This document shows positions 47,951 through 64,000 of a stretch of DNA of 64,000 nucleotides, in pieces; within the stretch, counting starts at the first letter, position 1, and each line of letters opens with the position of its first letter. Origin of the DNA: Planctomycetota bacterium (lineage in GTDB: Bacteria > Planctomycetota > UBA8108 > SXIK01); NCBI GenBank assembly GCA_965223265.1, contig OZ244999.1, positions 6,528,001-6,592,000 of the forward strand, written 5' to 3'. The translations under genes were made by a program, and so were the position numbers. The notes below the pieces were generated by a model that did no database searches, was not told where the DNA came from, and worked only from the letters and a program-made list of their open reading frames with translations.

Positions 47951-48874
47951 TCAGCTCAAGAGTTCGGCTTGGTACTTCTTCAACTGATTCTTAAGCCGAA
48001 AGATGATACGGGAGTGAAGCTGGCAGACGCGAGACTCGGAGAGATTCAGTGTCGCACCGATCTCGCGCATGGTGAGATCTTCGTAGTAGTAGAGAAGCAG
48101 GATGAGACGTTCCTTGCGACTCAACCCCTTCGTAATGAACTCCGTGATCTCCTTGCGTTTCAACTCGTACTCGGGATCGACGCCTTTCTTGTCCTCGAGG
48201 ACATCGATCTTGCGAAGCGTTTTCGATCCCTGATCTTCTTTCGTCTTGTCGGTCAAACTGACGATCGTGATCGCGCTCGCTTCGCGGATCAACTCGTGGT
48301 ACTCGTCGATCGAGATCTCGAGCGATTGGGCCATCTCCATGTCGGTCGGAACACGGCCGAGCTGGACCTCGAGAGTCTTCCACGTCGTCTCGATGCGATT
48401 TGCCTTATTGCGAACGATGCGAGGCACCCAGTCGAGCGAGCGTAACTCGTCGAGGATGGCGCCCCGAATGCGTGTCGTGCAGTAGGTCTCGAACTTGACG
48501 CCGCGGCTGAGGTCGTAGCCGTTGACGGCGTCCATCAAACCGAAAATACCGGCACTCGTAAGGTCATCGAGCTCAATATTCTGCGGCAGTTTCGCCAGCA
48601 GGCGCTCAGCGATGTATTTGACCAGCGGTAGGTATCGTTCGATGAGGATGTTGCGAAGTCGTTCGTCGCCTGTGCGTTTGAAATCGCGCCACACCTGCTC
48701 TATGTCGATGCCGGAATCTTTGACAGCGCGAGCGCCGCCTCGCTTCGTTGTCTTGGCGACGCGAGTCCGTGGCCTTGCGGGGCGCGAGGCCGCCAAGCGG
48801 CTCTTCCCCGGCTTCACAAGCGCACCGGCGGAAGTCGTTTCTCGAGTTCTCTTACGTTCTCTGGCTCCGCTCAC
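47951..48874 (-). CDS. fliA: RNA polymerase sigma factor FliA/WhiG (sigma28)
   Basis: FETYCTTRIRGAILDELRSLDWVPR, LYYYEDLTMREIG, SESRVCQLH; follows flhF-flhG. Confidence 0.92.
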   Translation of the reverse strand: MSGARERKRTRETTSAGALVKPGKSRLAASRPARPRTRVAKTTKRGGARAVKDSGIDIEQVWRDFKRTGDERLRNILIERYLPLVKYIAERLLAKLPQNIELDDLTSAGIFGLMDAVNGYDLSRGVKFETYCTTRIRGAILDELRSLDWVPRIVRNKANRIETTWKTLEVQLGRVPTDMEMAQSLEISIDEYHELIREASAITIVSLTDKTKEDQGSKTLRKIDVLEDKKGVDPEYELKRKEITEFITKGLSRKERLILLLYYYEDLTMREIGATLNLSESRVCQLHSRIIFRLKNQLKKYQAELLS

Positions 48875-49127
48875 CGCGGTTCCTCCACACTTCTTCCGAC
48901 CCGCTGCTGCGGTCCGGCACTCTTCTCAAGATCAGTCGGTCGAATGCGGCCCTCACGGTCGATTTGCACGTCGGTTGGTCAGGCCATCAATTTCGCGGCC
49001 CCCTCCTCCCTCGAATACAGTCGGGGCCAACTTCGCTTCTCTTCTCGCTGCGTTGACGCAGCAACCCAATCAAAAACGCTATTCGGCCGAGAAACTGAGT
49101 CTTCGACTCGAAGCGCCTCGTCGTAGG

Positions 49128-49976
49128 CTATTGACTCTTCATTCCATAGACGGCAGTTGCGAACTTACGAATGAACCCAGTCGCTGGTGCCTGCTCTGAG
49201 ACGATTTTCTCCGCAATCAGCCGAATCTTCCGGGCGGCCGACGACTTCGGTGAGCCGACGACGAACGGGACGCGCCGCCGAATCGCATGGCTGACGCGCT
49301 GATCCGTGGGAACAAAACCCAGACCATCGACTTCGAGCGATAGGAATTTCTGCGCCACCATCCGGATGCGCTCGAACACTCGCCCCGCTTCCCGAGCGTC
49401 CCGACACTGGTTGACGATCAATCGAATGCGTCCACGTCCCTTCTCTCTGGCCACCGCCTTGATCACCGCGTACGCATCGGTCATCGCGGTTGGTTCCGGA
49501 ATCGTGATAACCAACACCTCGTCAGATATCGCCGCAAACTGAACCACATTCTTCGAGATTCCCGCCGCCGTGTCGAAGATGACGACATCGAAGCTGCGAC
49601 CGAGATCCTGAAAGCCCTGCACGAGGAAGTCTCGCTCCGCTTGTTCCAAGTCCGAAATGTGTCTGACACCGGTACATCCGGAAAGGAGCGTGACGCCAAA
49701 GGGTGTTGGCACCAAGGTGTCGCGAACACTCGTTTCCCCTGAAAGAACATGGCCGAGGTTGTAGCGCGGCTGTACCGATAACATCACGTCGACGTTCGCT
49801 AGGCCAATGTCGAGATCGACGAGGGCAACGCGCTTGCCAAGCTGCACCAGCGAAACCGCCAAGTTGACGGCGCAACTCGATTTCCCGACGCCACCTTTGC
49901 CGCTCGCGACGGCCAAGAACTTCGCTCGCCCCTCCTCCCCTGCGACAAGGTCCCTCAGCTTCTTTGCCTGGTCCAT
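49128..49976 (-). CDS. flhG: MinD-like ATPase FlhG/FleN
   Basis: MDQAKKLR, SGKGGVGKS, DLDIGLANVD, PEPTAMTDAYA. Confidence 0.92.
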   Translation of the reverse strand: MDQAKKLRDLVAGEEGRAKFLAVASGKGGVGKSSCAVNLAVSLVQLGKRVALVDLDIGLANVDVMLSVQPRYNLGHVLSGETSVRDTLVPTPFGVTLLSGCTGVRHISDLEQAERDFLVQGFQDLGRSFDVVIFDTAAGISKNVVQFAAISDEVLVITIPEPTAMTDAYAVIKAVAREKGRGRIRLIVNQCRDAREAGRVFERIRMVAQKFLSLEVDGLGFVPTDQRVSHAIRRRVPFVVGSPKSSAARKIRLIAEKIVSEQAPATGFIRKFATAVYGMKSQ

Positions 49977-49985
49977 GTGGCACCT

Positions 49986-51179
49986 TCAATGAACTGCGTT
50001 CTTGAGCACAAGATCGGCAAGTCGTTCTGGATCGCCGGGCATGATGTCATCCGGGACATTTTGACCATCGGTGATGAATGACACGGGCCGTCCGATCGTA
50101 AAAAGCGCTTTCACGAGCGCGCCGAAGGAAACGGTCTCGTCGACCTTCGTCAGGATCACGGCGTCAAAATCGATCCCCATGAAGCGGTTCGCGATATTCT
50201 CCAGAGTCGAACCGTGAGTCGTGGTACTCAAGACGAGGTGCGTCTCGACATCCGGCAGCACGGATAGAAATCCTCTCAGCTCGGCCATCTTGAGTTCGTC
50301 GCGATGACTGCGGCCGGCGGAATCGATGAAAACAAGATCCACCTCTCGCTCGCGAAATTCATCGATAACATCGCTCAACTCCTGCGGCTGCGCGGCCACT
50401 GCCATTGGTAGCCCGATGATCTCCGCATACTTCTCCAACTGGTCGATCGCAGCGATACGGAACGTATCGAGCGTCACGAGACCAACCCGCATCCGTTCAT
50501 TGATCTTGGCCCGTGCAGCCAGCTTTGCGATGGTCGTTGTTTTGCCGACGCCGGTCGGGCCAACGAGTGCGATCAAACGCGGCTTGATCTTCTTGTTGAG
50601 GGGCGGGGACGGGAGAAAGAGCTGCGTCAACTGGGAATGGACGACTGAACGCACTCGCGCGGGCTCCGGAAATCCTTCCGGAATCTTCAGCGTCGCGATG
50701 TGCTGCGAGAGCCGATCAGCGATCTGGGGATCGACCTCCTTCGAGATCAGGAGCTCGTAGCATTCCGAGAGAAACGGATGGTCATACTTCTGAAGCCCGC
50801 CGGTGCGAGAGACAAACTCCCGGATTTCTTGGCGGATTTGACTCAGGGCGTTGGCGAATTCTTCGTACGACGCAGACGATTGATCTTCGCTTGCCTCGGT
50901 CGCTGGGGTCTCGACTGGAGCCGAGCCGTTCATGGTTTCCGCGCGACTGGGTACGATCTTCCGAGTTCGATTCAGATTCTCTCGCTTGACGTTCTCGATT
51001 CGAGATCGCGTGTCCGCAGCGAACACTTCGACCACCTCGCGACCGCCGAAGCCGAGAACCCCTCCACGCCGAAACGTCCGCGTCTTGACGATCATCGCGT
51101 CGCTCCCCAGCATGGTGCGAACCTTTTCTAAGGCCTCGTCCATGGTGGGGGCTTCGACTCTCGTGAGTCGAAAACTCAT
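49986..51179 (-). CDS. flhF: SRP-family GTPase FlhF
   Basis: GPTGVGKTTTIAKLAA, DTFRIAA, DSAGR, TKVDE, GQNVPDD. Confidence 0.93.
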   Translation of the reverse strand: MSFRLTRVEAPTMDEALEKVRTMLGSDAMIVKTRTFRRGGVLGFGGREVVEVFAADTRSRIENVKRENLNRTRKIVPSRAETMNGSAPVETPATEASEDQSSASYEEFANALSQIRQEIREFVSRTGGLQKYDHPFLSECYELLISKEVDPQIADRLSQHIATLKIPEGFPEPARVRSVVHSQLTQLFLPSPPLNKKIKPRLIALVGPTGVGKTTTIAKLAARAKINERMRVGLVTLDTFRIAAIDQLEKYAEIIGLPMAVAAQPQELSDVIDEFREREVDLVFIDSAGRSHRDELKMAELRGFLSVLPDVETHLVLSTTTHGSTLENIANRFMGIDFDAVILTKVDETVSFGALVKALFTIGRPVSFITDGQNVPDDIMPGDPERLADLVLKNAVH

Positions 51180-51274
51180 ACTCTCTTCCTCCTTTTGCTC
51201 GCTTTTCTGTCCACTGTTTTCATCGCTCAGCTTCGCGGCGACCTCCTACGCCCCACGACGATCGATATCGGCGG

Positions 51275-53413
51275 CTATGCAACGTGCTTCAACGCAACGA
51301 CACCACCGCTTTCGACTTGGATGTCGTCTGGAACCTCCTCATAGGCCAAAACCGGAAGATCCGGAAGTCGACGCTGGACCCAACGCTGCAGAAGCGGTCG
51401 CACGACGCCGGGGCAAAGAACGACTGTCGGCGCAGACTGATCTTCGACCGAGTCATAGCTCTGCGCCAGCGCGTCCGAAACGAGTCGTTCAAGCTCGGAG
51501 CTCGACGACTCGTCCGTCTCTTCGCCACCACCAGCCGCACGCTGAAGCATTTCCTCGTCAGCTGGGGAAAGATAAAGCGCCCGTAGCCTACCGTTAGGCC
51601 CTGCGATGACTCGACAGATAACGTCGCCCATAGAGCGCCGCACGCGTTCAGCAAGAAGCATCGGATCGCGGCACTCGCCGACGTTTTCAGCAAGAACTCC
51701 GAGTATCGATTCGAGGTCGCGGATCGAAATCCTTTCGCTCAGTAGCCTCTGCAAAACCTTGTGCAGCTCGGTGAGCTTCAAAACTCCTGGCACGAGCTCC
51801 CCAACCAGAACCGGGGAGCGATCTTTGAGATCGGCAACAAGCCGCGCCGTCTCCTCTCGCGTGAGAATCTCCGCAGCTCGCGCTCTAACGACGTCGTAGA
51901 GGTGATCAGAAATCAACTCTGGAGTCGTCCTCATCGTCGACGCAGCGCTCGCTGGCGAGGCGCCTTGGTCGTTCTTGATCCATGCCCCTTCTTGTCCGGT
52001 TATGGGGTCCTCACCGATCTTCGCGTGCGGGACCTTCGCCTGCGGCGCAATCGGCGAAACAAAGACGTGATCCGGATACACACGCCAAGCGCCAAGGGAC
52101 TGACCGCGCAGTCGGATCGAATACTCCGTCGGGCGCAGGCGAATGTTGTCACGAACCTTCACAGCGGGCATGACGAACCCAAGTTCCAGCGCAATTCTCT
52201 CTCGTACCCGAGCAAGACGGTCAAACAGATCGCCCCCACGCCCCTCGTCGACAAAGCCGACAAGTCGAAAGCCAACCTCGAGCTCGATCGGCTCGAGGAC
52301 AAGCAACGACCGGACCGATTCCGGCGAAGCGCCATGCGGTTCTGCGAGCTCAGGCTCGTCGAACGGTTCCTCGGAGGGATAGTCCTCTTCCAGACGCGGC
52401 CGGCGCAGGTACAGCCCGATTCCAAAGCAGACTCCGGCACCCGCAATCAGTACGAGCTTTGGCAGCCCCGACGCCAGCAGCAAGAGCAGAAATCCTCCGA
52501 GGACGAACAGCACGCGGTCGTTGACGAACAACTGCCTTGTCATGTCCCGACTCAAGTTCTCACCGCCGGTGTTCTTGGTCACCAACAACGCAGTCGCGAC
52601 GCTCACCAAAAGGGCCGGCACCTGGCTGACCAGCCCGTCGCCAATCGTGAGCCGTGTGTAGACCTCGGCTGCCTGAGCAATGCCCATGTTGCCCAAGCCC
52701 GCGCCGATGCAGAACCCAGCCACGATGTTGACGAAAGTAATGATGAGACCCGCCACCGCTTCGCCGCGCACAAACTTGCTGGCTCCATCCATCGTGCCGT
52801 AAAAGTCGGCTTGCTCGCTGAGCTCACTCCGAAGCTCCCGCGCAGTCTCTTCGTCGATCAACCCAGATGAATAGTCGTTGTCGATGCTCATTTGCTTCCC
52901 CGGCATGGCATCGAGAGCGAACCGGGCGGCGACCTCGGAAATACGTGTCGCCCCCTTCGTAATGACGACGAACTGAACGACAACGATGATCGCGAAGACG
53001 ATCAAGCCGACGACGATGTTGTCGCCAGCAATAAAGTTTGCGAACGCGTCGATCACGCCACCAGCCGGCTGTGAAGCGCCGGGAACGCTACCAAGGATCA
53101 GTCGCGTTGTCGCGATATTCAACGAGAGTCGGAAAAACGTGATCAGTAGAAGCAGCGACGGAAACACACTGAACTCGAGCGGTGACGCGAGACACGCTGT
53201 GGTCATGAGGATCAGCAGCGAGACAGTGATGTTCAGGACCAGCAGCGCGTCCATAAGCCCTGGCGGAAGCGGGACCAGGATGACGAACAGCACAGCGAGA
53301 AGCCCCGCTGGCACGGCGATGTCGGCTCCGAACCCGGTGCGTCCGAAGGAGTGTGCGTCAAAGTGAGTCTCGCGACTCTGATCGCCAGGATCGGCTCGTC
53401 CCATCTCTTCCAC
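51275..53413 (-). CDS. flhA: Export gate protein FlhA
   Basis: FPSLLL, FRLSLNIATTRLIL, EVAARFALDAMPGKQM, FYGTMDGASKFVRG, TIGDGLVSQVP. Confidence 0.93.
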   Translation of the reverse strand: MEEMGRADPGDQSRETHFDAHSFGRTGFGADIAVPAGLLAVLFVILVPLPPGLMDALLVLNITVSLLILMTTACLASPLEFSVFPSLLLLITFFRLSLNIATTRLILGSVPGASQPAGGVIDAFANFIAGDNIVVGLIVFAIIVVVQFVVITKGATRISEVAARFALDAMPGKQMSIDNDYSSGLIDEETARELRSELSEQADFYGTMDGASKFVRGEAVAGLIITFVNIVAGFCIGAGLGNMGIAQAAEVYTRLTIGDGLVSQVPALLVSVATALLVTKNTGGENLSRDMTRQLFVNDRVLFVLGGFLLLLLASGLPKLVLIAGAGVCFGIGLYLRRPRLEEDYPSEEPFDEPELAEPHGASPESVRSLLVLEPIELEVGFRLVGFVDEGRGGDLFDRLARVRERIALELGFVMPAVKVRDNIRLRPTEYSIRLRGQSLGAWRVYPDHVFVSPIAPQAKVPHAKIGEDPITGQEGAWIKNDQGASPASAASTMRTTPELISDHLYDVVRARAAEILTREETARLVADLKDRSPVLVGELVPGVLKLTELHKVLQRLLSERISIRDLESILGVLAENVGECRDPMLLAERVRRSMGDVICRVIAGPNGRLRALYLSPADEEMLQRAAGGGEETDESSSSELERLVSDALAQSYDSVEDQSAPTVVLCPGVVRPLLQRWVQRRLPDLPVLAYEEVPDDIQVESGGVVALKHVA

Positions 53414-53455
53414 TTCTCTAGTGCGACGGACGTCAAACGCGTCCGACCGCAGGTG

Positions 53456-54223
53456 TCACTGCAGCGGTTCCCTACGCTCTCGCAACTGGGCGCGGCGGCG
53501 CGCTTTTACACTTTGGTTTCCGTCCTCACGCAGCGCTTCCTCGCGCACTTCGGCGCGCGTCATCCGAAGGCTTCCCTCGAGAAACCATCGCTGCACGCCA
53601 TAGTCGATGGCGCCCAGCACGACGAGTGCCAGCGCCAACTGTAGTGCGAATCTCAGCACGTTTTCCCAAGTCCCGACCCATGGAGACTCACTCGCCGCGA
53701 ACCCACCGCGCGTCACAAACCCGGCGAGGGCAAACCAGAACATCAGCCCGACGACGAGCAGCTTCAAGGCCGCAAAAATGCCCCGAGCCACACTCGAAGG
53801 AGCCAGCAGTCGTGACAAGCCTGATAGCGGAGCGACGCGGCCCCACTGGGGCAGCACGATCTGCGGAAGAAAAACCCACACCCCTTGCAGAGCGAAACAG
53901 AGGACCATCGTCAGGCAGGCAAACACCGCGATCGGAAAGACACTGGCGGCAAGATATGATGAGAGCTTCCCCGACAGAGTCGCCAGCCCCCCCTCGGTGA
54001 CGAGTTGCCTGGCGTCGTTGAGCTGCGAAAGAGTGCTGCTGGTGAAGCGGAAGGTCTGATCGGCGAGCTGCGGCATCAGCCATCCGAGGCAGGCGAACGT
54101 CGCGAGCAATGAGAAGGCGACGGTCAAATCGCGACTCTTTGCGATCTGACCGCCTTGTCGAGCCTCCCTCCGTCGTCGTGCGGTCGGCTGTTCAGTCCGC
54201 TGCTCTTTGTCATGATCAGCCAT
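53456..54223 (-). CDS. flhB: FlhB, C-terminally truncated (no NPTH/cytoplasmic domain)
   Basis: RTEQPTARRRREARQGGQIAKSRDL N-terminus, 4 TM segments, LRMTRAEVREE...DGNQSVKARRR, then a stop at 255 aa. Confidence 0.85.
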   Translation of the reverse strand: MADHDKEQRTEQPTARRRREARQGGQIAKSRDLTVAFSLLATFACLGWLMPQLADQTFRFTSSTLSQLNDARQLVTEGGLATLSGKLSSYLAASVFPIAVFACLTMVLCFALQGVWVFLPQIVLPQWGRVAPLSGLSRLLAPSSVARGIFAALKLLVVGLMFWFALAGFVTRGGFAASESPWVGTWENVLRFALQLALALVVLGAIDYGVQRWFLEGSLRMTRAEVREEALREDGNQSVKARRRAQLRERREPLQ

Positions 54224-54322
54224 GTGGATTTCCTCGGTCGCAGAACTGCTCGAAGAGACGACCGTGCACCGAGCACCTCACGACAGCACCTAAAGTCAGA
54301 TCCACTCTTGTGCGGTGCGTTT

Positions 54323-55129
54323 TCAATTCACGAACCCCTGCACTGATAGCCGACTCTCGGAAACCGCGGCGTCGAAAAACCGCGCGCAGGTGTCGACGAA
54401 GAACGGGAGCGAAAGCGCCACGACTCCAAGGGCAACGAGCGTACGAAGAAGGAAGCCGAACACGACAGTCTCCAGCTCTGGAAAGAGCCGACTCAAAAAC
54501 CCCTGAGCAACGGAAGCCAAGAGGAGGACGGCAGAAACCGGCAGGACGAGTATCGGCACGGCTTGGAGCAGTAAGGCGCCGACCATCAGCGTGATGCGAC
54601 CGAGGCCGGCTGCAAGACCGTCGGCAGTGAGTTGCCCGGGAGCGATGATCTGGAAGCTGTCGGCAACGGCTCTCAAGATCTCGTGATGAACCTCGACTGC
54701 AAGCAGCGTGAATGTCGCGAGACCACCGTACAGAAGCTTCAACACAGAATCGCCAGCGTCGGCATAGGGATCCAGAAATCCACCAAACGCGAAGCCAGTC
54801 TGCTCGCCGATGAGCGTCGCCGCCGAGCGTACCGCAGCGATCACCAGCAGCGAGGCAGCTCCGATCGCTGCGCCGATGACCGCTTCGCCGAGGATGGTCG
54901 GCAGGAGCGCCAGCGAAACGGGCGGGACGGCTGGCGCCGGCGGCAATCCTTGGAGCAGCGCGAAGGCCAACAAGACAGACACCGCGAGTCGAAATCGAAA
55001 CGGCAGAATACGGCTGGAAAGAACCGGCAACGTCATTGCCAGACCCATGAGACGAGCGGCCGCGAGAAGCGGCACCGCACCGATTCCACTCCACAGCGTT
55101 GACCAGGTTGTCGACGCTATATCGATCAT
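54323..55129 (-). CDS. fliR: Export gate protein FliR
   Basis: Hydrophobic; RLMGLAMTLPVL, GEAVIG, QTGFAF, SRLFPEL; lies between fliQ and flhB. Confidence 0.88.
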   Translation of the reverse strand: MIDIASTTWSTLWSGIGAVPLLAAARLMGLAMTLPVLSSRILPFRFRLAVSVLLAFALLQGLPPAPAVPPVSLALLPTILGEAVIGAAIGAASLLVIAAVRSAATLIGEQTGFAFGGFLDPYADAGDSVLKLLYGGLATFTLLAVEVHHEILRAVADSFQIIAPGQLTADGLAAGLGRITLMVGALLLQAVPILVLPVSAVLLLASVAQGFLSRLFPELETVVFGFLLRTLVALGVVALSLPFFVDTCARFFDAAVSESRLSVQGFVN

Positions 55130-55153
55130 GAAAAGACCTCGGCCCTACGCATC

Positions 55154-55435
55154 TCAGCTACCGAGAACCACATTCATCATGGTTGTCAGCACACTCCGGG
55201 TGTAGTCGGTCACAACATTCAGGATCCACGGCATGAAAAAAAACAGCGTGGCCGCCATCGCAAGTAGCTTCGGAATGATCGAGAGCGTCTGTTCCTGAAT
55301 TTGCGTCACCGCTTGAAAGATGCTGACGAGTAAACCAATGACTAGCCCCACGACAAGAACAGGCAACGCAATCTGCATCGCCGTGAAAAGCGCGCCTCGA
55401 CACAACTCCGTTGCAAGGTCCAGCTGATCCATCAA
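55154..55435 (-). CDS. fliQ: Export gate protein FliQ
   Basis: GLLVSIFQAVTQIQEQTLSIIPK. Confidence 0.95.
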   Translation of the reverse strand: MMDQLDLATELCRGALFTAMQIALPVLVVGLVIGLLVSIFQAVTQIQEQTLSIIPKLLAMAATLFFFMPWILNVVTDYTRSVLTTMMNVVLGS

Positions 55436-55452
55436 TCTTTCGACGCCACCCT

Positions 55453-56319: not shown

Positions 56320-56348
56320 TGTGTCTTCGCCGTTTGAATCCGGCACGG

Positions 56349-56528
56349 CTAACAGCCCGTTGAAAGAGTCATTCGGCCGAGAACGGGCCTCCGTACGCTC
56401 AGCTCGAACGCGTCAATACTCGCCGTAGTACCTTAGAGAAGAGGGCCGGGGATTACCTGCGCTGGTGACACCCGATCTGGATGCGAAGCGACCGGTTTTC
56501 GACTCGAAGCACTTTTTCAATCAGTCTG
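56349..56528. mobile_element. MITE family A copy between fliO and fliP
   Basis: CTAA-CAGCCCGTTGAAAGAGTCATTCGGCCGAGAA...GTTTTCGACTCGAAGCACTTTTTCAA; inverted relative to 45906-46064. Confidence 0.8.
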
Positions 56529-56573
56529 GAAACCTCAATTCAGCGATTGGATTGGCGCCCTTGAGATCCCGCG

Positions 56574-57284
56574 TCACGGGCTGCGTTCGAAACGCTCGCC
56601 CTCACTGCCAGAGCGCCAATTCTGAAGCAAACTACGCAACCTCGTGACTTCACGCCGATACGGCGTCAAGTCATCGGTGAGTTTCGAAGAAGAGGGATTC
56701 CCACCGCAGGATTCACCGTCCTCAGGATCATCACCCCGAGACTCGCTGTGCGGGCGGAACCAGTACGGGTCCCCGCCGCCGCCCTTGGCAGTGACCGCCG
56801 AATCGAGCGTCAAGGGTGAAACACCCTCGGCGCCGGCATGAACACTGCTCGGTCGGTCGAAAACCGCTAGTGTGGAGATGTTGTCCGGAGTCACGCCGAC
56901 AACAAGCTCGCGATCTCGAACTCGAAGTACCCAGACAGAGTGACGCGGAGAGAGCGCCAGACGATCGACAAGACGAATGTCGTCTCCCGAAGTGCCGACT
57001 CCTAGCCTGCCACGCCGTCGGCGACGATAGACGAACGCGAGACAGCCGACGAGACCGAGCCCGGCTGCAATGTAGCCGACGAGCTGCAGCCTATCCCGAG
57101 CAGGCGAAACACTACTTCGCGCTGGCAGTTCGCGAGCTGAGCGCAGCGGCTGAATCGTGTCTCCAGGCCGAACGTACCCGCCGCTACGAGCGGTTTCAGC
57201 CTCCACCCTAATGCCCGATAGAGTGACGGTGACTGCGACGACGACGGCAGCAATGAGCTTGCCGAATCCTGTTGCTTTCTTCAT
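56574..57284 (-). CDS. fliO: FliO
   Basis: TM segment followed by IRLVDRLALSPRHSVWVLRVRDRELVVGVTPDNISTL. Confidence 0.85.
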   Translation of the reverse strand: MKKATGFGKLIAAVVVAVTVTLSGIRVEAETARSGGYVRPGDTIQPLRSARELPARSSVSPARDRLQLVGYIAAGLGLVGCLAFVYRRRRRGRLGVGTSGDDIRLVDRLALSPRHSVWVLRVRDRELVVGVTPDNISTLAVFDRPSSVHAGAEGVSPLTLDSAVTAKGGGGDPYWFRPHSESRGDDPEDGESCGGNPSSSKLTDDLTPYRREVTRLRSLLQNWRSGSEGERFERSP

Positions 57285-57706
57285 GCTCCCTCCCCATGAC
57301 TGCTGCCCGGGGTTGGCAGAACTTCGGTAACACGGACGCAGAAGCAGTTGTTGAGCACGAGGATCTCACCCCGAGCCAAGAGGATGTCGTTGACGTACAG
57401 GTCTACCGGCTCGTCGGTCCCTCGATCTAGTTCGAGCACAGACCCGCTCTGTAAACGCAAAACGTCCCGCAGCGGCATCCGGCGTCGCCCAAGCTCGACC
57501 CGAACGTCGAGATGGAGCTGCCGGGTGAGCTCAGGAATGGAGTCTTCCACTCCACTGGCAGACACACGATTCTTCGCGGGCGCGGCGACCTCCGCCTCCT
57601 CAGCCGGAAGATCAAGAACCGGCGTCAGGTCGGCGGGAATGTTCGTAGAATCGAGCGCCTCGGCCAGAAGATCGCTCGACTCATCACCTTTTTTTGACGC
57701 GACCAT
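57281..57706 (-). CDS. fliN: C-ring protein FliN (SpoA domain)
   Basis: VRVELGRRRMPLRDVLRLQSGSVLEL...EPVDLYVND...ARGEILV...VRVTEV. Confidence 0.9.
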   Translation of the reverse strand: MVASKKGDESSDLLAEALDSTNIPADLTPVLDLPAEEAEVAAPAKNRVSASGVEDSIPELTRQLHLDVRVELGRRRMPLRDVLRLQSGSVLELDRGTDEPVDLYVNDILLARGEILVLNNCFCVRVTEVLPTPGSSHGEGA

Positions 57707-57835
57707 TCTCTAATCTCCTACGGCTCGACGTTCGTCCCTACCTCTGGTTCGAACGCCAGACGACTCTTCAACTCGCTCTGTCCCTTCACTTCTTCACCTC
57801 TTGTCATGCGACGGCACCCGCTGACGAGCTCTCTC

Positions 57836-58300
57836 TCAACCGTTCGTGCCTCCGGGGACAGGGTCAAACCTCTCCCTGCCGCGTGAGACCCGGGAGATGA
57901 CGGCGTCCTCGTAGTCACGCTCGCGCAACCTTGACTCACGCGCCACAACATCGCGCCGCCGACGCGCCACCAATCTGTCAGTTGCTTGGAGACGGTTCTC
58001 GTCTCTCACCCACTCTTCGAGCCGGACTTGGAGGCGCGTTTGAAGTCGCTGCAACGCGCTCTCAAGAGTCAGTTTCGCGGCAACTCTCTGAGCGAGAGCA
58101 CGGCGCCTCTCAGGCTCACTCAGCGTCGCGTCCGCGTCGACACGCTCGCACCCTTGGAGACAATTGCGCATCCGTCGCTGCAGCACATCGAACTCCTGAT
58201 GAGCGCTCAGGTAGAGGGCCTTGCTACGCGCCAGGTCCAGTTCCCTCAAGCGACGCAGCGCCTGCATCGACCGAATGGTCTCATTTCGTGCGTCAGTCAT
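57836..58300 (-). CDS. fliJ: FliJ-like coiled-coil protein
   Basis: Directly after fliI; MQALRRLRE N-terminus; about 150 aa, helical and charged. Sequence is divergent, so the call rests mostly on position. Confidence 0.6.
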   Translation of the reverse strand: MTDARNETIRSMQALRRLRELDLARSKALYLSAHQEFDVLQRRMRNCLQGCERVDADATLSEPERRRALAQRVAAKLTLESALQRLQTRLQVRLEEWVRDENRLQATDRLVARRRRDVVARESRLRERDYEDAVISRVSRGRERFDPVPGGTNG

Positions 58301-59627
58301 GCACAGCCTCCTCCACATCACCCGCTGCTGCTGTCAACGCTACGAGACGATCCACTGTGCTGGCGAGTTCGCTCGTCTCGAACTCGCTCTGCCGCAAGAA
58401 CGCCTCGATTTCGGGGTAAACCTTCAAAGACGCGTCGATCTGTGGATCCGTGCCCAAGGAGTAGGCGCCCAAACGCACAAAGTCCTCGACTTGACGGTGA
58501 CGTGCCAAGTGCGCTCGCGCCCTGTTGGACGCCGCGAGATGCTGCGGCGTCACGATGCGGCTCTGCGCTCGACTCAGACTAGACAGCGGATCAATCGCGG
58601 GGAAATGCCCCTTCTCCGCCAAGTCACGACTGAGCCAGAGGTGACCGTCGAGAATTCCTCGTGACGAATCGGCGATCGGATCGTGGCGGTCGTCGGCCTC
58701 GACGAGAACTGAGAAAAAACCGGTGACGCTTCCCGCCTCCGTCGGCCCCGCGCGCTCAAGAAGTCGCGGCAAAAGGGCGAATACAGACGGCGGATAACCT
58801 CGAGTCGTCGGTGGTTCGCCGCAGGAAAGCCCTAACTCCCGTTGAGCGGTCGCGACGCGAGTGAGCGAATCCATGAGCAACAGCACCTCGTGCCCCTGGT
58901 CACGGAAGTGCTCCGCGATCGCCGTGGCGACGAACGCAGCTTGAATGCGTCGCAGTGCGGACTCCTCGCTCGTGGCAGCCACAACGATGCATCGACTGAG
59001 GCCATCGTTACGGAGAACCTGCTCGACAAAATCTCGCACCTCGCGACTACGCTCGCCGATCAGCCCGATGACGACGATGGACGCCTCCGTGTGCCGCGCA
59101 ATCATACCGAGAAGCATGCTCTTGCCGACACCGCTGCCGGAGAAGATCCCCATTCGCTGGCCGCGCCCGACGGTCACCAACGAATCGATCACGCGCACGC
59201 CTGTAGCGAGTGGGCGTCGGATCTGCGCACGACTCAATGGGTTTTCAGGGGGGCGATAGAGAGGCACATCGACACCGCGGGAGAGCCGTCCATCGTCGTC
59301 GAGAAGCCGCCCCTCGGAGTCGACGACGTGGCCAACCATGTCATTGCCGACCCGGACTGTGGTGGTCTCTCCTTCGTAGACGATCCGATCGCCGGCGGAG
59401 ATACCGCGCAGGTCATCAAAAGGTGCAACGAATGTATTCTCACGCCGAAAACCGATCACCTCCGCAGCCAGTCGGCGACCGTTGCGACACGTGATCTCGC
59501 ATCGTGCACCGAGCGGCGCGAAGAGCCCACGCGCCTCGACCGTGAGGCCGGAGACGCGGTGAACGCAGCCTTCGATCCGTGCCGCGAAAGCGCTGCGGAC
59601 GATCTGCTCCAGACCGTTCATGTCCAA
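58293..59627 (-). CDS. fliI: Export ATPase FliI
   Basis: GQRMGIFSGSGVGKS, IGERSREV, LLMDSLTR, GEPPTTRGYPPSV, LDGH, FPAID. Confidence 0.95.
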   Translation of the reverse strand: MDMNGLEQIVRSAFAARIEGCVHRVSGLTVEARGLFAPLGARCEITCRNGRRLAAEVIGFRRENTFVAPFDDLRGISAGDRIVYEGETTTVRVGNDMVGHVVDSEGRLLDDDGRLSRGVDVPLYRPPENPLSRAQIRRPLATGVRVIDSLVTVGRGQRMGIFSGSGVGKSMLLGMIARHTEASIVVIGLIGERSREVRDFVEQVLRNDGLSRCIVVAATSEESALRRIQAAFVATAIAEHFRDQGHEVLLLMDSLTRVATAQRELGLSCGEPPTTRGYPPSVFALLPRLLERAGPTEAGSVTGFFSVLVEADDRHDPIADSSRGILDGHLWLSRDLAEKGHFPAIDPLSSLSRAQSRIVTPQHLAASNRARAHLARHRQVEDFVRLGAYSLGTDPQIDASLKVYPEIEAFLRQSEFETSELASTVDRLVALTAAAGDVEEAVHD

Positions 59628-60649
59628 CGCTCCCGCTGCAGATCACGTCCATCCTCGTGGCGGCGACGCGCTTTTGACACAACGTTTTCTGCACCGACGT
59701 CGTGTGCGTCGACACCGCCCTGCACGCGGCCCGCCGCCATGGCCGACACATTCGTACTTTGCAGCAGCGCGTCTTCAACTGCCTTCGTCACCAGCTCCAA
59801 CTGCACCCCTATGCTCTGGTCGACGATTCCCGTCCCCGAGACGACGCGACAACCACCGCGGTCGACGTCGACACACTCGGCAACTTCGATGGCTTCGAAT
59901 CCTTCGATCCAACGAGGCTTGCGGCTCAAGATCTCCCGGAACGCCGCGGCATCGTCGGGATGAAGCTGTACCACAACGTCACCGCGGCGAAACGTCAAGT
60001 CGACGGCGCTCTGAACGTTGCGCAGTGCGACCTCGCTGTCGTGAGCAATCTCGTGCTTGAGAATCTTGCGAGCGATCTCTTTGGCAATCAGGACGACCTG
60101 CGACGACAGGTCGGCAAAGGAGTCGTCGAACTTCCCCTGCACGTCGCGCACGGCGGTCGTGAACGCGCTCGCGAGATGAGCCAGCTCTGATCGAGCCTCC
60201 GTCCTTCCCGCATCGATCCCTTCTCGCTCGCCGGCGTCATAACCAGCGCGATACCCTTCCTCATAGCCTTCCTTGCGCCCAGCTTCGAACCCAAGCTCTC
60301 TGCCGGCAGAGGCCGCCTCATCCTGCGCCAGGTCGAATGCCTCTGTAGCCATCTGCTGACGCCGATCGATCTCCGCTCGCACGTCCTGCTCGTGGCGCTC
60401 AAAGTCCTTGCGCGCACAAATCCAGCGCTCACGGATTTCATCCTCAAGCCGCCGGCGTAATCCCTCGAGCTCTTGGAGCCGGTCGCGTGCCGTGCGGATC
60501 AAAGAGGTGCAGATCGCATCGACGCCGCGCTGCTCGACATGCTTTGAGAAATCTCTGCGGCGCGACGGCGCGTCCTCCCCCGTCGTGACAGCACGAATCA
60601 CACGTCCGCTCCCTGCCAAGCTCTGCCGATCGTCAGGCACTTGTCTCAT
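59618..60649 (-). CDS. fliH: FliH
   Basis: GxxxG repeats (GFEAGRKEGYEEGYRAGYDAGEREG); VQLHPDD; RGGCRVVSGTGIVD. Confidence 0.88.
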   Translation of the reverse strand: MRQVPDDRQSLAGSGRVIRAVTTGEDAPSRRRDFSKHVEQRGVDAICTSLIRTARDRLQELEGLRRRLEDEIRERWICARKDFERHEQDVRAEIDRRQQMATEAFDLAQDEAASAGRELGFEAGRKEGYEEGYRAGYDAGEREGIDAGRTEARSELAHLASAFTTAVRDVQGKFDDSFADLSSQVVLIAKEIARKILKHEIAHDSEVALRNVQSAVDLTFRRGDVVVQLHPDDAAAFREILSRKPRWIEGFEAIEVAECVDVDRGGCRVVSGTGIVDQSIGVQLELVTKAVEDALLQSTNVSAMAAGRVQGGVDAHDVGAENVVSKARRRHEDGRDLQRERWT

Positions 60650-61989
60650 GGCGTCGGCCTCCGCTCAGCGTCTCGCTTCTGGTCAGAGAGTTCGCGCACG
60701 AGCTCTGTGGTCACGCCGCCCTCATGAAGCTCGAAGATGCCTTCGAGAACGCGGCGACGAGCAGCTTCGACTTCGAGAAGGCGAGTTGGTCCGAGAGCCT
60801 GGATCTTCTCGCGTAGACGCTCCCCATGACGCCGTGACAGGTTACGTGTCACCTTCTTGAAAACCTCGCGCCCCGTGCTCTTCAGTGCCATCGCGAGGTC
60901 ATTGGGATCGACCCTTTTGAGCGCCTTCTGAAGGTACCTGTCCTCGAGCTGGATGAGCTGTTCGAAGACGAGGAGATGCTTGCCGACCTCTTCGGCAATC
61001 TCCGGTGCGACCTGCTTCATGTGGTCAAATGACTCGGCCGCTTCGTCACGGTTAGACGCCCTGAGAATTTGAGCGACAGCTTGAGCGCCCGTCTGACCAG
61101 AGAGCGATGCGAATCGTGCCCCCGACAGCTGCGTCTTCAGGACTCTTTCGACAGCACGAAGAGCTTCCTGCGAGGCGCCGTCGAGCGTGGCCAGACGTCG
61201 AAGAACACCATGGCGACGCTGCGGGGTCAGCCGTGCCAAAACGTCGGAGGCGAGTGCCGGACCAACGTGTGCCAGGACGATCGCTACGGTTTGCTCCCGT
61301 TCGTCTTGCAGGCAGGAGAGAAGACTTTCGCCGTTGACGTGCTTTGAAATCGAAAAATGCTTGCGGCCGTGATGGGCAGCCAAGAGCCGCAGCAGGTGAT
61401 CGGCCTTCTGCGGCGCGATCGAACTTCTGATGAGCTTTGATGCCAACTCCCAGCCGCCCTCTTGGACAACACCTTGGGCTCGCTCGATGTCGTGAAACTC
61501 CTCGATCACCTCCATGACGGCGTCTCGATCCACGACACCAAGGCTAGCGATCTCCGCAGTGACGCGACTCATCTCCTCGTCGGAAAGGCAGCGTAGGAGA
61601 CGTGAAGCCGCTTCCTCATCGAGCGCGAGGACGAAAATGGCGGCTTTCGAGATTCCCTTCAGCTGAGTGCGACGCGGGTCAGGATGACGCGGGTCAGGGT
61701 GACGGGGGGCGAACGCTCCGACGGTGCTTTCGTCTGCGGGACTGGTGCGGCTGTCAGCGCTCGACAGCAGGTGAGACGGCGGAGCCCCTTCGTCAACGGC
61801 GACGAAGTCGTGGTCGAGGTCTGCTGCGTCCTCAGGCTCACCGTCGTCGAGCCGCTCCGCACCATCAAACTCCGCGGCAGCGTCCTCAGGCTCAAGGTCC
61901 GTAGACGAGCGCGCGGTCTCATCGAGGTGAGTACGACGGTAACGTCGGCCTTGAGATTCCTGATCGACCGCGATGGCGTCGACTTCCAT
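60646..61989 (-). CDS. fliG: FliG, divergent
   Basis: LKGISKAAIFVLAL, QTVAIVLAH, VFEQL, LAMALK, LGPTRLLEVEAAR; acidic N-terminal extension. Confidence 0.88.
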   Translation of the reverse strand: MEVDAIAVDQESQGRRYRRTHLDETARSSTDLEPEDAAAEFDGAERLDDGEPEDAADLDHDFVAVDEGAPPSHLLSSADSRTSPADESTVGAFAPRHPDPRHPDPRRTQLKGISKAAIFVLALDEEAASRLLRCLSDEEMSRVTAEIASLGVVDRDAVMEVIEEFHDIERAQGVVQEGGWELASKLIRSSIAPQKADHLLRLLAAHHGRKHFSISKHVNGESLLSCLQDEREQTVAIVLAHVGPALASDVLARLTPQRRHGVLRRLATLDGASQEALRAVERVLKTQLSGARFASLSGQTGAQAVAQILRASNRDEAAESFDHMKQVAPEIAEEVGKHLLVFEQLIQLEDRYLQKALKRVDPNDLAMALKSTGREVFKKVTRNLSRRHGERLREKIQALGPTRLLEVEAARRRVLEGIFELHEGGVTTELVRELSDQKRDAERRPTP

Positions 61990-63668
61990 CAGTGCGCATC
62001 TCCTTCGGCCTGGAGCGAAGACTTAGAGTCTTCTGAAAGCCACACGCGCACCACCGACGCCGCTGCCTGGGGCCGCTCACAGACCCATTGGCTCGCGCGT
62101 TCGACTGAGCCGAGAAAGGACTCTGGCGTCGCAGCTTGCTCTGCTTTGGCACCGTACCCACCCACTTGAGACGTGTCGTCCGCGACTTCCTCTTGTTGAG
62201 CCGCAGCTCCTTTGCGACCGGTTGCAACGCGCCGCCGCGCCGCACGGCGGCGCCAGAAAAGACCGACGAACGCGACAAGGACGACACCAGACGCAGCGCC
62301 GGCAACCCAACGCTTCGGCTGAGAATCGAACAAGACGAACAACGACCCGAAGGCGCGTTGGAACGACTGCAAGGCCGAAGTCGGCTCACTGGCGGCCGTT
62401 GACTCGCCGGTCGCTGGGTCGTTCCCCACCTCCTCGGTGCCAGCGCCTTCTTCGGTGTCTACCACGGTTGCAACCCCTTGGGGTTCAGTGTCGCCATCGT
62501 CAGGCCTCACGACGATCAAGACGTGAGACACAAACGGCGCAAAGTGTGTCAGCAGCTGACGTCGGTGCGCATCTTCAAACCAGCGTAGTTCTAGCGAGCC
62601 GTCGTCGCTGTCGACACCATCAGCGACGCTGCACGATAAGCGCAGCACGGCCGATTCGGCGAGTGTGACACGAATCCGTGCCGCACCGGCGAGCTCCACT
62701 ACATCCGCGCTGGATCCGCTCGCGGCGTGCCCGGCGGCCGGCGACGCGCCACCTACGTCGCTGCCGGCATCGTCTCCCAACGCTTCGTCTCCGATGGCGC
62801 CGTCTCTTGTGGTAGCGTCATGGGCGACGCTCGGAACTGGCTGAAAAGTACCAATGCCGCCGGCAGCGCCATGTGCAGCCGCTCGACGCGGCACGCCTCG
62901 AACAACGCGCACGGAGACGTCGAATTCGTGCGGCGGCAAGACGCCGCCGTAGAACTCACCCAAGCCATCGAGCAGCCACTCGTGTAGCTCTTCGGGCGTC
63001 CGAGGTGCACTCACCCGTTGAGTGTAGACGTTCCCGTGATCGTCGGTGATCGAAACTCGGTCCGCGCCGAGGTTGAATGACCTGCTGACCATCTGACGCA
63101 CGGCACGGGCTTGACGTGCAGGCAGTCGCATCACGCCGTGCCCGAGCGTAAGAAAAACCGAGGCCGTACCGTCTGCCGCGTCGTGGAGGCGCCCTCCCCG
63201 CGGCTTGTTCAGTTCGACCGTGGCCCGGGCGACGGTACTGTAGCCCTCGATGTTGCGGCTGATGCGCTTGCGCTTCAAATCTGCGTTCCGATCTGAAAGC
63301 CAGGTCGAAGGCACCCACGGGGACGGTGGCTTGTCAAACGCATTCGGCGGTTCGGCCGACTCGACCTCAAGAAGCTTGACGGCACGGGGCAGTTGATCGA
63401 CCGCGACCTCGAGGCGACTACCGCCAGCCGCCGGGGCAGCGCGGACGATGATCCCCGCCCCCTCGAGCCGCTGGCGGAGGGCCGCGACTTCGTGATCCGA
63501 GGAGTCGAGGAGCACGACGAACTCAGGCCTAGGAACGGTCGTCGCCCCCCACACAATCAAACCAAGCGCCGCGGCCATGACGCCGACGTAGGCGAGCCTT
63601 TGCAGTGGCGACAGCGACTGCCAGAGGTTCCTCACCTCAGCTTGAATTCGGTGCACGAAGGGTCTCAC
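61989..63668 (-). CDS. fliF: FliF/YscJ-like MS-ring protein, divergent
   Basis: N-terminal TM; ASVFLTL...QARAVRQMVSRSF...RVSITDDHGN ring motif; second TM; C-terminal RPQAAASVVRVWL FliG-binding motif. GTG at 63668 (after GAGGT) assumed as start. Confidence 0.8.
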   Translation of the reverse strand: MRPFVHRIQAEVRNLWQSLSPLQRLAYVGVMAAALGLIVWGATTVPRPEFVVLLDSSDHEVAALRQRLEGAGIIVRAAPAAGGSRLEVAVDQLPRAVKLLEVESAEPPNAFDKPPSPWVPSTWLSDRNADLKRKRISRNIEGYSTVARATVELNKPRGGRLHDAADGTASVFLTLGHGVMRLPARQARAVRQMVSRSFNLGADRVSITDDHGNVYTQRVSAPRTPEELHEWLLDGLGEFYGGVLPPHEFDVSVRVVRGVPRRAAAHGAAGGIGTFQPVPSVAHDATTRDGAIGDEALGDDAGSDVGGASPAAGHAASGSSADVVELAGAARIRVTLAESAVLRLSCSVADGVDSDDGSLELRWFEDAHRRQLLTHFAPFVSHVLIVVRPDDGDTEPQGVATVVDTEEGAGTEEVGNDPATGESTAASEPTSALQSFQRAFGSLFVLFDSQPKRWVAGAASGVVLVAFVGLFWRRRAARRRVATGRKGAAAQQEEVADDTSQVGGYGAKAEQAATPESFLGSVERASQWVCERPQAAASVVRVWLSEDSKSSLQAEGDAH

Positions 63669-63952
63669 CGCGACCTCAGAGCCAGTCCGGGCGGCGACGC
63701 CCAGCAGCAATCCTCTTCCGAGAAAAAAAGGGAAAAGGAACGAGCGTCCACGACCAGAAGACCCGTCCCCGTTTCCCGTCTCTCCTAGCGGCCAAAACCG
63801 CTAAGCTCCAACCCCGAATGCTCCAAACTCTTCTCTCTTCACTCACGACAGCTGACCCGCGGGGGGAGCAGCCGCAATCCAAGGGCGCCGGGCTTGGAAA
63901 TCCTTCCGTAACCCCAAGTTATGGCTCTGGAGCACTCGAGAGCTGGTCCGCT

Positions 63953-63981
63953 AACATAGCGACTGTTTTACAAAGTGTAAA
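63953..63981 (-). promoter_or_regulatory. Putative sigma70 promoter with overlapping palindrome upstream of fliF
   Basis: TTTACA-N17-TATGTT on the minus strand; inverted repeat TTTACA-AAG-TGTAAA at 63967-63981. Confidence 0.5.
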
Positions 63982-64000
63982 GCAGATTCTGAGATTTCCG

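Follow-up and report, generated by a model that had tools for sequence, protein, structure and literature searches.

Introduction

[quoted passage not shown] In Buchnera, basal parts of the flagellum are kept by non-motile cells without flagellin; the rod, hook and L/P-ring genes are present there, and fliA and flgM are not known from it. Chlamydia is a relative of the Planctomycetota within the Planctomycetes-Verrucomicrobia-Chlamydiae (PVC) group. It has no flagellum, yet it possesses sigma-28 with a non-flagellar developmental regulon, together with orphan fliI, flhA and fliF genes (PMC10597470; PMC2830194). [quoted passage not shown] In Lysobacter enzymogenes OH11, a co-opted FT3SS-like export apparatus without a filament has been reported to be expressed and functional (PMC7688988; PMC7277350). 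This strain has no functional fliC and keeps most flagellar genes; a hook-basal body was assumed by the authors, with FlgD being secreted, and fliH is reportedly missing, in a source passage that is garbled (PMC7688988). The needleless T3SS* of Myxococcus, or Myxo-type non-flagellar T3SS (NF-T3SS), is a type III basal body that lacks both needle and secretin and has been conserved for long periods (PMC3459982; PMC12075869). It belongs to the non-flagellar branch (sct genes), and its function was argued from sequence and gene-order conservation (PMC3459982). The Bacillus subtilis nanotube CORE consists of FliOPQR-FlhBA, and the same genes also build the flagellum (PMC6456723). A hat-shaped fT3SS-related structure is a further analogue (preprint 10.1101/2021.09.03.458937).

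In Salmonella, the export signal of the anti-sigma-28 factor FlgM lies in its N-terminal part. FlgM is described as a late fT3SS substrate whose export frees sigma-28 (PMC10597470). The literature searched contained no described Planctomycetota reduced fT3SS, no naturally truncated FlhB and no sigma-28 control of ftsK; supplements, such as the partial flagellar loci of Abby and Rocha 2012, were outside the search. A first-pass annotation of the window, made from its letters alone, had read the locus as an exapted, non-motile, polarly targeted secretion machine. In the present study, the genome was found to have lost its axial parts, MotB and the switch domain of FlhB, and the rest to be conserved by purifying selection throughout an order-level clade. 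We tentatively propose that the predicted rodless export gate may have been retained as a FlgM-export switch gating a rewired sigma-28 regulon.

Results

Organization of the operon

The closed single-contig genome has a size of 9.18 Mb and a G+C content of 60.8%, and the G+C content of the operon region (0.58-0.63) was the same as that of the genome (0.608). Gene positions are given in window coordinates unless prefixed G000. Pfam searches and open reading frame (ORF) calls bore out the annotated contiguous operon from fliF to fliA on the minus strand, with 15 of 15 frames open in the order fliF-G-H-I-(J)-N-O-P-Q-R-flhB-flhA-flhF-flhG-fliA, where fliJ was assigned by position only. The features, with protein lengths in amino acids (aa), are as follows.

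61989-63710, minus strand: fliF, MS-ring protein, 573 aa (Pfam YscJ_FliF, E 3.8e-10, residues 61-230 only)
60646-61989, minus strand: fliG, rotor/C-ring protein, 447 aa (Pfam FliG_N, FliG_M and FliG_C)
59618-60649, minus strand: fliH, ATPase regulator/stator, 343 aa (Pfam FliH, E 3.4e-16)
58293-59627, minus strand: fliI, export ATPase, 444 aa (Pfam ATP-synt_ab, E 1.1e-84, and T3SS_ATPase_C)
57836-58321, minus strand: fliJ-like ORF, 161 aa, Arg-rich coiled-coil type (position and composition only)
57281-57706, minus strand: fliN, C-ring/sorting platform, 141 aa (Pfam FliMN_C, E 1.6e-23)
56574-57284, minus strand: fliO, 236 aa (Pfam FliO, E 5.3e-12)
55453-56346, minus strand: fliP, export gate, 297 aa (Pfam FliP, E 1.1e-65)
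55154-55435, minus strand: fliQ, export gate, 93 aa (Pfam Bac_export_3, E 1.4e-28)
54323-55129, minus strand: fliR, export gate, 268 aa (Pfam Bac_export_1, E 1.1e-38; tblastn frame agrees)
53456-54223, minus strand: flhB-N, transmembrane domain and linker helix, 255 aa (Pfam Bac_export_2, positions 1-239 of 335)
51275-53413, minus strand: flhA, export gate, 712 aa (Pfam FHIPEP, positions 1-656 of 657, E 3.6e-214)
49986-51179, minus strand: flhF, signal recognition particle (SRP)-type GTPase, 397 aa (Pfam SRP54, E 3.9e-45)
49128-49976, minus strand: flhG, MinD/ParA-type ATPase, 282 aa (Pfam ParA/CbiA; KGGVGKS motif)
47951-48874, minus strand: fliA, sigma-28, 307 aa as called (Pfam Sigma70 r2, r3 and r4)
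63953-63981, minus strand: sigma-70-like promoter candidate 5' of fliF, TTTACA-17-TATGTT (read by eye)

These results indicated that the fT3SS core was represented by FliO and the gate proteins FliP, FliQ, FliR, FlhA and FlhB, all Pfam-positive (FlhB with its membrane domain and linker only), together with the MS-ring protein FliF and the ATPase complex FliH/FliI; FliJ was included by position and composition. The fliJ-like ORF had no Pfam or NCBIfam match and no BLAST match to the ORF at the fliJ position of a flagellated relative (G005), and the ORF at the same position of the reduced operon in another family (f6) did match Pfam FliJ. The annotated ATPase and GTPase motifs were found intact in FliI (Walker A and B, SGSGVGKS and LLLMDS), FlhF (GPTGVGKT and TKVD) and FlhG. 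The FlhA cytoplasmic domain (FlhA-C) was complete, aligning to residues 34-380 of B. subtilis FlhA-C 3MIX, and FliG had an acidic N-terminal extension of about 105 aa. The longest ORF at fliR (54216-55094) was rejected because it was out of frame and had a nonsense-like translation.

The spacing of about 130 bp annotated between fliJ and fliN proved to be 129 bp. The non-coding stretch 5' of fliF had been put at 290 bp, which is the distance to the window end; it is really about 500 bp, running 215 bp past that end. The accompanying claims were upheld: flgB, flgC and fliE were not found upstream of fliF, and a sigma-70-like candidate could be read by eye. An 82-aa MerR-family gene lies on the same strand 5' of this stretch, with a divergent GTPase-like gene beyond. 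We also observed a motif, ACACTTT(A/G)TAA...GTAAA(A)C, on the minus strand both 5' of fliF (63953-63985) and 5' of the MerR-family gene (about G000 6592552-6592580), which could be a shared operator or promoter element.

Flagellar parts absent from the genome

In the whole closed genome, Pfam searches gave no match to Flg_bb_rod, Flg_bbr_C, FliE, Flagellin_N or MotB_plug, and every control was positive in four flagellated model genomes; the rod models cover few positions (31 and 46). For greater sensitivity, every ORF of 90 aa or more in the full operon of G005, a flagellated relative of the same order, was searched against G000 by tblastn. By position and length, the G005 operon reads flgB-flgC-fliE-fliF-G-H-I-J-x-fliK-flgD-flgE-x-fliN-O-P-Q-R-flhB(370 aa)-flhA-flhF-flhG-x-fliA, and its rod and hook motifs, like its FliF, were confirmed by profile. 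Matches were obtained for core genes only, with identities of 21% (FliF), 32% (FliG), 28% (FliH), 54% (FliI), 54% (FliN), 52% (FliP), 60% (FliQ), 29% (FliR), 26% (FlhB, residues 1-246 only), 44% (FlhA), 41% (FlhF), 54% (FlhG) and 81% (FliA). The G005 ORFs at the flgB, flgC, fliE, fliK, flgD, flgE and fliL positions had no match in G000, and when nine additional flagellar-region loci of four flagellated relatives were used in the same way, their ORFs matched nothing flagellar outside the operon. FlgD, FliK and FliD were likewise not found by tblastn with the relatives' ORFs, a search in which no hidden Markov model (HMM) was used.

The relatives' MotA and MotB had no tblastn match in G000. MotB_plug was absent from G000, G001 and G023 and present in the flagellated G005 and G036; the two MotA_ExbB-family genes of G000 are presumed to be of the ExbB/TolQ type. 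A rod-motif gene of about 240 aa in G005 and G036 was missing in G000, where its conserved neighbours lie 48 bp apart (G000:C1:2066499-2066547), indicating a clean deletion. The whole-genome check that the first-pass annotation had called for, covering rod, hook, flagellin, FliE, MotB and the C-terminal switch domain of FlhB (FlhB-C), thus found none of them by Pfam and tblastn.

Neither the operon nor its flanks contained a secretin or needle gene, with no genome-wide secretin search made, and no cargo, chaperone or outer-component candidate was found there either. A second FHIPEP gene of the injectisome type was not found in G000. The best PDB matches of FlhA were flagellar FlhA and not SctV, and the protein was nested among flagellar FlhA of the same class; the operon was not classed here as an injectisome.

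Outside the window, two tandem genes (553 and 531 aa, G000:C1:334332-337585) encode TIR-domain proteins fused to the FHIPEP C-terminal domain, that is, the FlhA cytoplasmic domain, and a DUF4062-CHASE2 gene follows the pair. Among the 41 class genomes, extra FHIPEP matches of this kind occurred in G000 only. PADLOC matched the TIR part only. The pair may represent a defence-type sensor built from the flagellar cargo receptor.

State of the remaining machine parts

The annotated lack of an FlhB switch domain was verified. In an alignment with 32 relatives, G000 FlhB stopped after the linker helix, before the NPTH motif carried by full-length relatives, and profile positions 240-335 were absent. 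The spacing between flhB and flhA is just 42 bp, so that no remnant of the C domain is left. The truncated gene was the single FlhB match in the genome and scored under all NCBIfam equivalog cut-offs; a separate FlhB-C gene, of the kind that exists in other Planctomycetota, was not found in G000.

The contacts of FliG were judged by alignment to Thermotoga maritima FliG 1LKV and relatives. The EHPQ motif was changed to EREQ and one of the two acidic torque-helix residues to Lys, which agrees with the annotated degeneracy, but both flanking Arg were retained and the family member G002 kept both motifs (EHPQ and torque helix); the degeneracy is therefore mild and variable. In FliF, the RBM1-2 region was recognisable and the later periplasmic ring region was divergent, as annotated: there was no YscJ_FliF_C match, unlike in flagellated G005 FliF, and no PDB sequence match at E <= 0.01. 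The C-terminal RPxxAAxVxRxWL motif, of the FliG-binding type and common to the relatives' FliF, was still kept. The presumed loss of fliM was not borne out, as fliM was found elsewhere in the genome; so was flgM. The fliM gene (G000:5124176-5125669) is a frame of 497 aa that combines FliM and FliN-C domains; it adjoins enolase and lies 1.4 Mb from the operon. No CheY-binding N-terminus of the LSQxEIDxLL type was seen in it by eye, and CheW-domain genes are present in G000.

FlgM, FliA and predicted sigma-28 promoters

The flgM gene was located at G000:6611142-6611258 on the minus strand, beyond the window and 19.5 kb upstream of fliF. Its product scored 38.4 bits against Pfam FlgM (cut-off 25) and just below the cut-off of NCBIfam TIGR03824 (40.7 versus 40.75). 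For the comparison of relatives, 41 class genomes including G000 were used, coded by family (f) and genus (g); f1 is the window's family, and the reduced genomes of f1 and f2 form its order-level clade. With a profile built from four class FlgM sequences, FlgM was found in 28 of the 41 genomes: 4/4 in f1, 13/14 in f2, 9/9 flagellated genomes and 2/3 in genus g13 of f5. FlgM was thus retained in 17 of 18 genomes of the window's reduced clade. The FlgM proteins of G000 and G001 were 67% identical, compared with 53% for FlhA of the same pair, and the N-terminal pattern MEI[QH]GP.G..GP, present in 16 of 17 reduced f1/f2 sequences, resembled that of flagellated relatives. FliA was the best-conserved operon product, with 81% identity to flagellated G005 and 64-79% to other close lineages, compared with 21-60% for the structural genes.

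The nine flagellin genes of flagellated relatives had no shared bipartite sigma-28 motif upstream by eye, and the promoter consensus (TAAA-N15-GCCGATAA) was therefore taken from the flgM upstream regions. A perfect textbook site, TAAACTTT-N12-GCCGATAA (TAAA-N16-GCCGATAA), precedes G000 flgM. Predicted sites with at most one mismatch were present upstream of flgM in three flagellated genomes and in 8 of the 16 reduced genomes for which the sequence reached far enough upstream. A scan of G000 for T[AC]AA[GC]-N14-16-GCCGATAA gave six perfect matches, against one in the reversed control; these precede flgM, ftsK, a 511-aa membrane protein gene, a GHL10-like gene, secDF and a 643-aa gene. The same scan of four other reduced genomes gave 3-6 matches versus 0-3 in the control, nearly all in the fuller form TAAAG...GCCGATAA. 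The 511-aa membrane protein gene was dropped as a regulon member, since homologues occurred in 4 of 21 genomes only. Upstream of G000 fliA there was no site at up to one mismatch; G004 fliA has one.

The ftsK gene is single-copy in G000. A predicted site, T[AC]AAG-N15/16-GCCGATAA, was found 71-145 nt upstream of its start in all 17 reduced f1/f2 genomes examined (16 perfect, one with one mismatch). These sites span six genera, between which the spacer sequences are unrelated. Among nine flagellated relatives, G028 had a perfect site, G009 and G005 had two-mismatch candidates and six had none. A further gene, here termed family X, has a lipoprotein-type signal in G002 (sequence read by eye). 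In 11 of 13 reduced f1/f2 genomes it lies behind a predicted site that has no more than one mismatch, and no such site precedes its weaker homologues in three flagellated and two f5 reduced genomes. Family X belonged to no Pfam family and had no PDB match below E 0.1. Its resemblance to NCBIfam SctY was sub-threshold (17.9 bits versus a cut-off of 70) and was disregarded.

Two further observations concern upstream regions. At the flagellin loci of relatives (L034, L036 and L037), csrA lies directly upstream in three of nine cases, and the remaining six genes are preceded by AAGGAGGA leaders of the kind typical for control by CsrA/FliW; no such csrA-flagellin or AAGGAGGA leader module was seen in G000. 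In addition, a 443-aa transposase-like gene occurs in four identical copies (G000:C1:912139, 2361511, 2376111 and 3476045), each preceded by TAAAGAAAGACACCTCCGCTACCGATAA, a one-mismatch sigma-28-like site.

Conservation, grades of reduction and selection

FHIPEP (FlhA) was present in 39 of the 41 class genomes, rod and flagellin in the same nine, FliG_C in 19 and FliM in 16; FlhA was still present in 31 of the 32 genomes without rod and flagellin. FliG and FliM were kept in f1 and in f2 genera g9-g11, except that FliG was not found in G003 (f1) and FliM not in G012 (g9). Genus g5 of f2 and the reduced genera of f6 were down to a FliF-like gene, FliH/I/J, FliOPQR, FlhB-N, FlhA, FlhF/G and FliA, and FliG, FliM and FliN were not found in them. 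Every reduced operon examined contained flhF and flhG, and it is from their presence only that the annotated polar targeting of the machine would follow. In f5 genus g13 (G022 and G024) there was no rod or flagellin match; FlhB was full-length, an ORF resembled the one at the G005 fliE position, and only a partial FliG_C match was found. In this genus the same reduction may be at an earlier or more relaxed stage.

The reduced f6 FliF-like proteins (639-651 aa; L025 14401-16338, L026 15074-16993 and L028 14951-16906) carry a long C-terminal cytoplasmic extension, which in alignment resembles a helical domain of the FliG N-terminal type. FliG_C was not found in those genomes, and the protein may be a FliF-FliG_N fusion.

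FlhB measured 255-286 aa in all 19 reduced genomes of f1, f2 and f6 (three families), 364-370 aa in seven of seven flagellated class members, 364 aa in both g13 genomes and 354-375 aa in six of six outgroups. In all short forms the end lay no more than about 25 residues past the conserved linker helix and ahead of the TNPTH stretch that the long forms have. This convergent truncation at the boundary between linker and C domain suggests that the boundary is a functional module border. In a sample of the phylum, FlhB was present in 37 of 61 genomes, and the only truncated copies were those of G000 and G023 and one interrupted by the end of its contig. A related-locus search of genome contigs with FlhB-N gave no relative. 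When 1.84 billion representatives were scanned with FlhB-N, 5669 matches were obtained, of which the best 150 were analysed (P0001-P0150). Among these best 150, 64 proteins were 178-284 aa long (63 of them 247-284), two were 306-307 aa and 84 were at least 320 aa; the NP[TEAS][HY] motif occurred in none of the 64 short and 49 of the 84 long proteins. In a FastTree phylogeny of the FlhB N-terminal part, 36 short representatives fell in the f1/f2-type clade, two with f6 and 26 scattered among long forms. Some of these 26, which are 247-284 aa long, were well-supported sisters of long forms, and they could be further FlhB-C losses or split genes; one or the other seems to have recurred beyond the f1/f2 and f6 clades.

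A quick-mode maximum-likelihood (ML) tree of FlhA (32 rows, rooted on four genomes of other classes) placed the 11 reduced f1/f2 sequences in one clade (100) and the eight reduced f6 sequences in a separate clade (100), which grouped with flagellated f4 and f6 (84); the reduced f5 pair was sister to a flagellated f5 genome (99). As judged from this gene phylogeny, the reduced state arose more than once, in keeping with the independent origin annotated, and its convergence in at least one other family is shown. There is one FlhA per genome, which indicates in-situ derivatives and not an old paralogous system.

The first-pass annotation had also asked about the same operon in relatives and about dN/dS. 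The reduced state was conserved, and dN/dS by Nei-Gojobori was 0.12-0.43 in five reduced f1/f2/f6 pairs (FlhA 0.12-0.20, FlhB-N 0.23-0.43), pairs that exclude a close relative of G000, whose nearest genome is G001 at 53% FlhA identity. The flagellated pair gave 0.09 for FlhA and 0.11 for FlhB, and the g13 pair 0.35 for both. The persistence of 15 open frames over the distance between G000 and G001 is evidence of constraint, and the conservation of the stripped state across relatives argues against decay.

Downstream of fliA, an 858-aa HEAT/TPR-repeat gene (42877-45453, minus strand) is syntenic in the reduced G001 and G002 and in the flagellated G005, with 35-43% identity. It thus belongs to the ancestral neighbourhood and is not part of the reduction.

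Discussion

The apparatus encoded by this operon is very probably functional and not used for motility. According to the explanation that we tentatively favour, the FliF ring, a C-ring of FliG and FliN with the distantly encoded FliM, the FliH/I/J complex, the FliO-assisted gate of FliPQR, FlhB-N and FlhA, and the placement factors FlhF/FlhG together with sigma-28 would form a working rodless export apparatus. This machine would build nothing now, and it would be kept since it still exports one remaining classical cargo, FlgM. Because there is no rod channel, export would probably be into the periplasm. Sigma-28 freed in this way would read the promoters of flgM, of ftsK, a DNA translocase/division gene, and of the conserved lipoprotein-like gene of family X. 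The flagellar assembly checkpoint would thereby outlive the flagellum as a secretion-gated transcription switch, possibly linked to the pole and the cell cycle. Non-flagellar targets that sigma-28 already had, or came to have, would have made the entire switch indispensable. The retained FlgM/sigma-28 module, together with the conserved predicted promoters, suggests a regulatory (checkpoint) use rather than effector secretion. The loss of FlhB-C fits the loss of all early (rod/hook-type) substrates that dock there and of the FliK-driven switch, and the late-substrate receptor FlhA-C is whole. Changes in FlhB-C can make the specificity switch independent of FliK, according to one report (PMC3708937).

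Several points weigh against this FlgM-switch explanation. All of the promoters are motif predictions, and both the binding of FlgM to FliA and its export by a predicted rodless, FlhB-C-less gate are inferred from sequence. In Salmonella, FlgM exits only after completion of the hook-basal body and an FlhB-C-dependent switch. By the class profile, FlgM was found in none of the 11 reduced f6 genomes, though the machine and fliA are kept there, so that FlgM export is not demonstrable as a general reason for retention. The ftsK site was not found in any of the four f5/f6 reduced genomes examined, one of them from f6. In one of nine flagellated relatives, G028 (family f5), the same coaBC-ftsK spacer contains a perfect site (G028:C117, L226 ~1162-1189), and the link between sigma-28 and ftsK may thus predate the loss of the flagellum. 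Control by sigma-28 alone would be met more simply by losing flgM together with the machine, and the retention of FliG, FliM and FliN in f1 is not required by the model. The at least three losses of axial genes and at least two of FlhB-C suggested by our data derive from a single gene tree combined with taxon codes and not from a species phylogeny.

A possible but doubtful alternative is that the rodless gate exports unrecognised new cargo to the periplasm or, with outer parts of an unknown kind, beyond. Such a machine would resemble the FT3SS reported in Lysobacter or the needleless T3SS* proposed in Myxococcus, and secretion of non-flagellar proteins dependent on the FT3SS has been reported in non-flagellated Lysobacter (PMC7688988). 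The whole engine is under selection, including the ATPase complex, the full FlhA-C receptor and, in f1, also the C-ring/sorting platform, and the reduced f6 clade keeps its engine without detectable FlgM. However, the operon and its flanks offered no candidate for a cargo, chaperone, secretin or outer component. Family X, with its Sec/lipoprotein-type signal in G002, would not be a type III substrate, and the 511-aa candidate is not conserved (4/21 genomes). The first-pass reading of an exapted secretion machine can therefore be kept as a stripped, non-motile derivative with ring, ATPase, gate, FlhF/FlhG and sigma-28; neither new cargo nor reach beyond the inner membrane was indicated.

It is unlikely that FliF, the C-ring proteins, the gate and FlhF/FlhG serve as a non-exporting scaffold, acting as a polar landmark or as a device for division-site or number control. 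In Campylobacter, basal flagellar parts act with FlhG against polar division. The MS ring, rotor and T3SS are needed there for FlgSR activation (PMC3760246). The conservation of flhF and flhG in all reduced operons examined and the place of ftsK within the predicted sigma-28 regulon would agree with a scaffold, but the intact ATPase motifs of FliI would not. Moreover, the cargo-delivery parts FliH/I/J and FlhA-C are universally kept, while the C-ring proteins are lost in f2 genus g5 and f6.

Simple decay, with the operon as a relic on its way out, is very improbable. The branches are accelerated, dN/dS is somewhat above that of flagellated relatives, strong divergence is seen in FliF, FliG, FliH, FliR and FlhB (21-32% identical to their G005 counterparts), and genus g13, with its full FlhB, FliE-like ORF and dN/dS of 0.35, looks earlier or more relaxed. 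On the other hand, all 15 frames are open in a closed genome, dN/dS is far below 1, the same gene set has been kept across divergence at the level of families and orders (within the family, FlhA is 53% identical), and the deletions are clean and the FlhB truncation point convergent. A complete flagellum whose axial, stator and FlhB-C genes are too divergent to recognise can be dismissed almost entirely: the rod models are short and the marker-based completeness is 91.65% despite one closed contig, but queries from flagellated members of the same order and class also found nothing, the relatives' rod-like gene is missing between close neighbours, and rod and flagellin models were positive in exactly the same 9/41 genomes.

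Reduced cores are usually explained as decay or as new secretion. The FlgM-switch explanation offers a third, testable answer, regulatory entrenchment, in which the engine would be kept because its sigma/anti-sigma switch acquired non-flagellar targets. In a bolder form, which we regard as speculative and on balance doubtful, a polar rodless gate with FlgM as its sole cargo would be a secretion-operated timer, coupling sigma-28 transcription of ftsK and a few other genes to the state of the pole or cell cycle in FtsZ-poor Planctomycetota. This design would have evolved at least twice in the class, with FlhB-C cut off within the same range of residues, and the wide recurrence of short FlhB in metagenomes would hint at a common, overlooked end-state of flagellar loss. 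The case connects a flagellar sigma factor to ftsK in a phylum with unusual division machinery. It is also a natural experiment, a type III gate without rod and without FlhB-C, which bears on gate opening and substrate classes.

Compared with the FlgM/sigma-28 checkpoint of Salmonella and many flagellates, the G000 system shares fliA and flgM, the canonical sigma-28 promoter at flgM, the FlgM N-terminus, the gate, the ATPase complex and FlhA-C. It differs in that there is no hook-basal body to sense, no FliK and no FlhB-C switch, and in that flagellin and other late structural genes are replaced by a predicted regulon of ftsK and the lipoprotein-like gene. Like Lysobacter OH11, G000 has an export apparatus without a filament, but it lacks all axial genes and FlhB-C, and it has FliH/I and a fliJ-like ORF. 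The Myxococcus T3SS* has no needle or secretin, genes for which were not found in or beside the G000 operon either, and for the G000 operon, too, function is argued from conservation of sequence and gene order. However, the G000 operon is a recent in-situ derivative of its own flagellar operon; genomes of this type keep FliG/FliM/FliN, FlhF/FlhG and FliA, with one FlhA per genome nested in the flagellar FlhA of the class. The gate proteins of the Bacillus CORE are within the minimal set of every reduced lineage, whereas FlhB of G000 has lost its C domain and is accompanied by FliF, FliH/I/J, FlhF/G and FliA; no evidence for nanotubes was seen in G000. Buchnera shares basal parts without flagellin, and its gene pattern is otherwise the reverse of that in G000. 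No compared analogue has lost both its entire axial gene set and FlhB-C while keeping FlgM, FliA and conserved sigma-28 promoters at non-flagellar genes. Chlamydia shares the absence of a flagellum and a sigma-28 with non-flagellar targets, but it has a complete injectisome, three flagellar orphans only and no known FlgM, whereas G000 has a full flagellar export core and FlgM and no injectisome-type FHIPEP. The G000 system thus provides a concrete counterpart, in which FlgM is actually present, to the idea of a secreted anti-sigma factor in Chlamydia.

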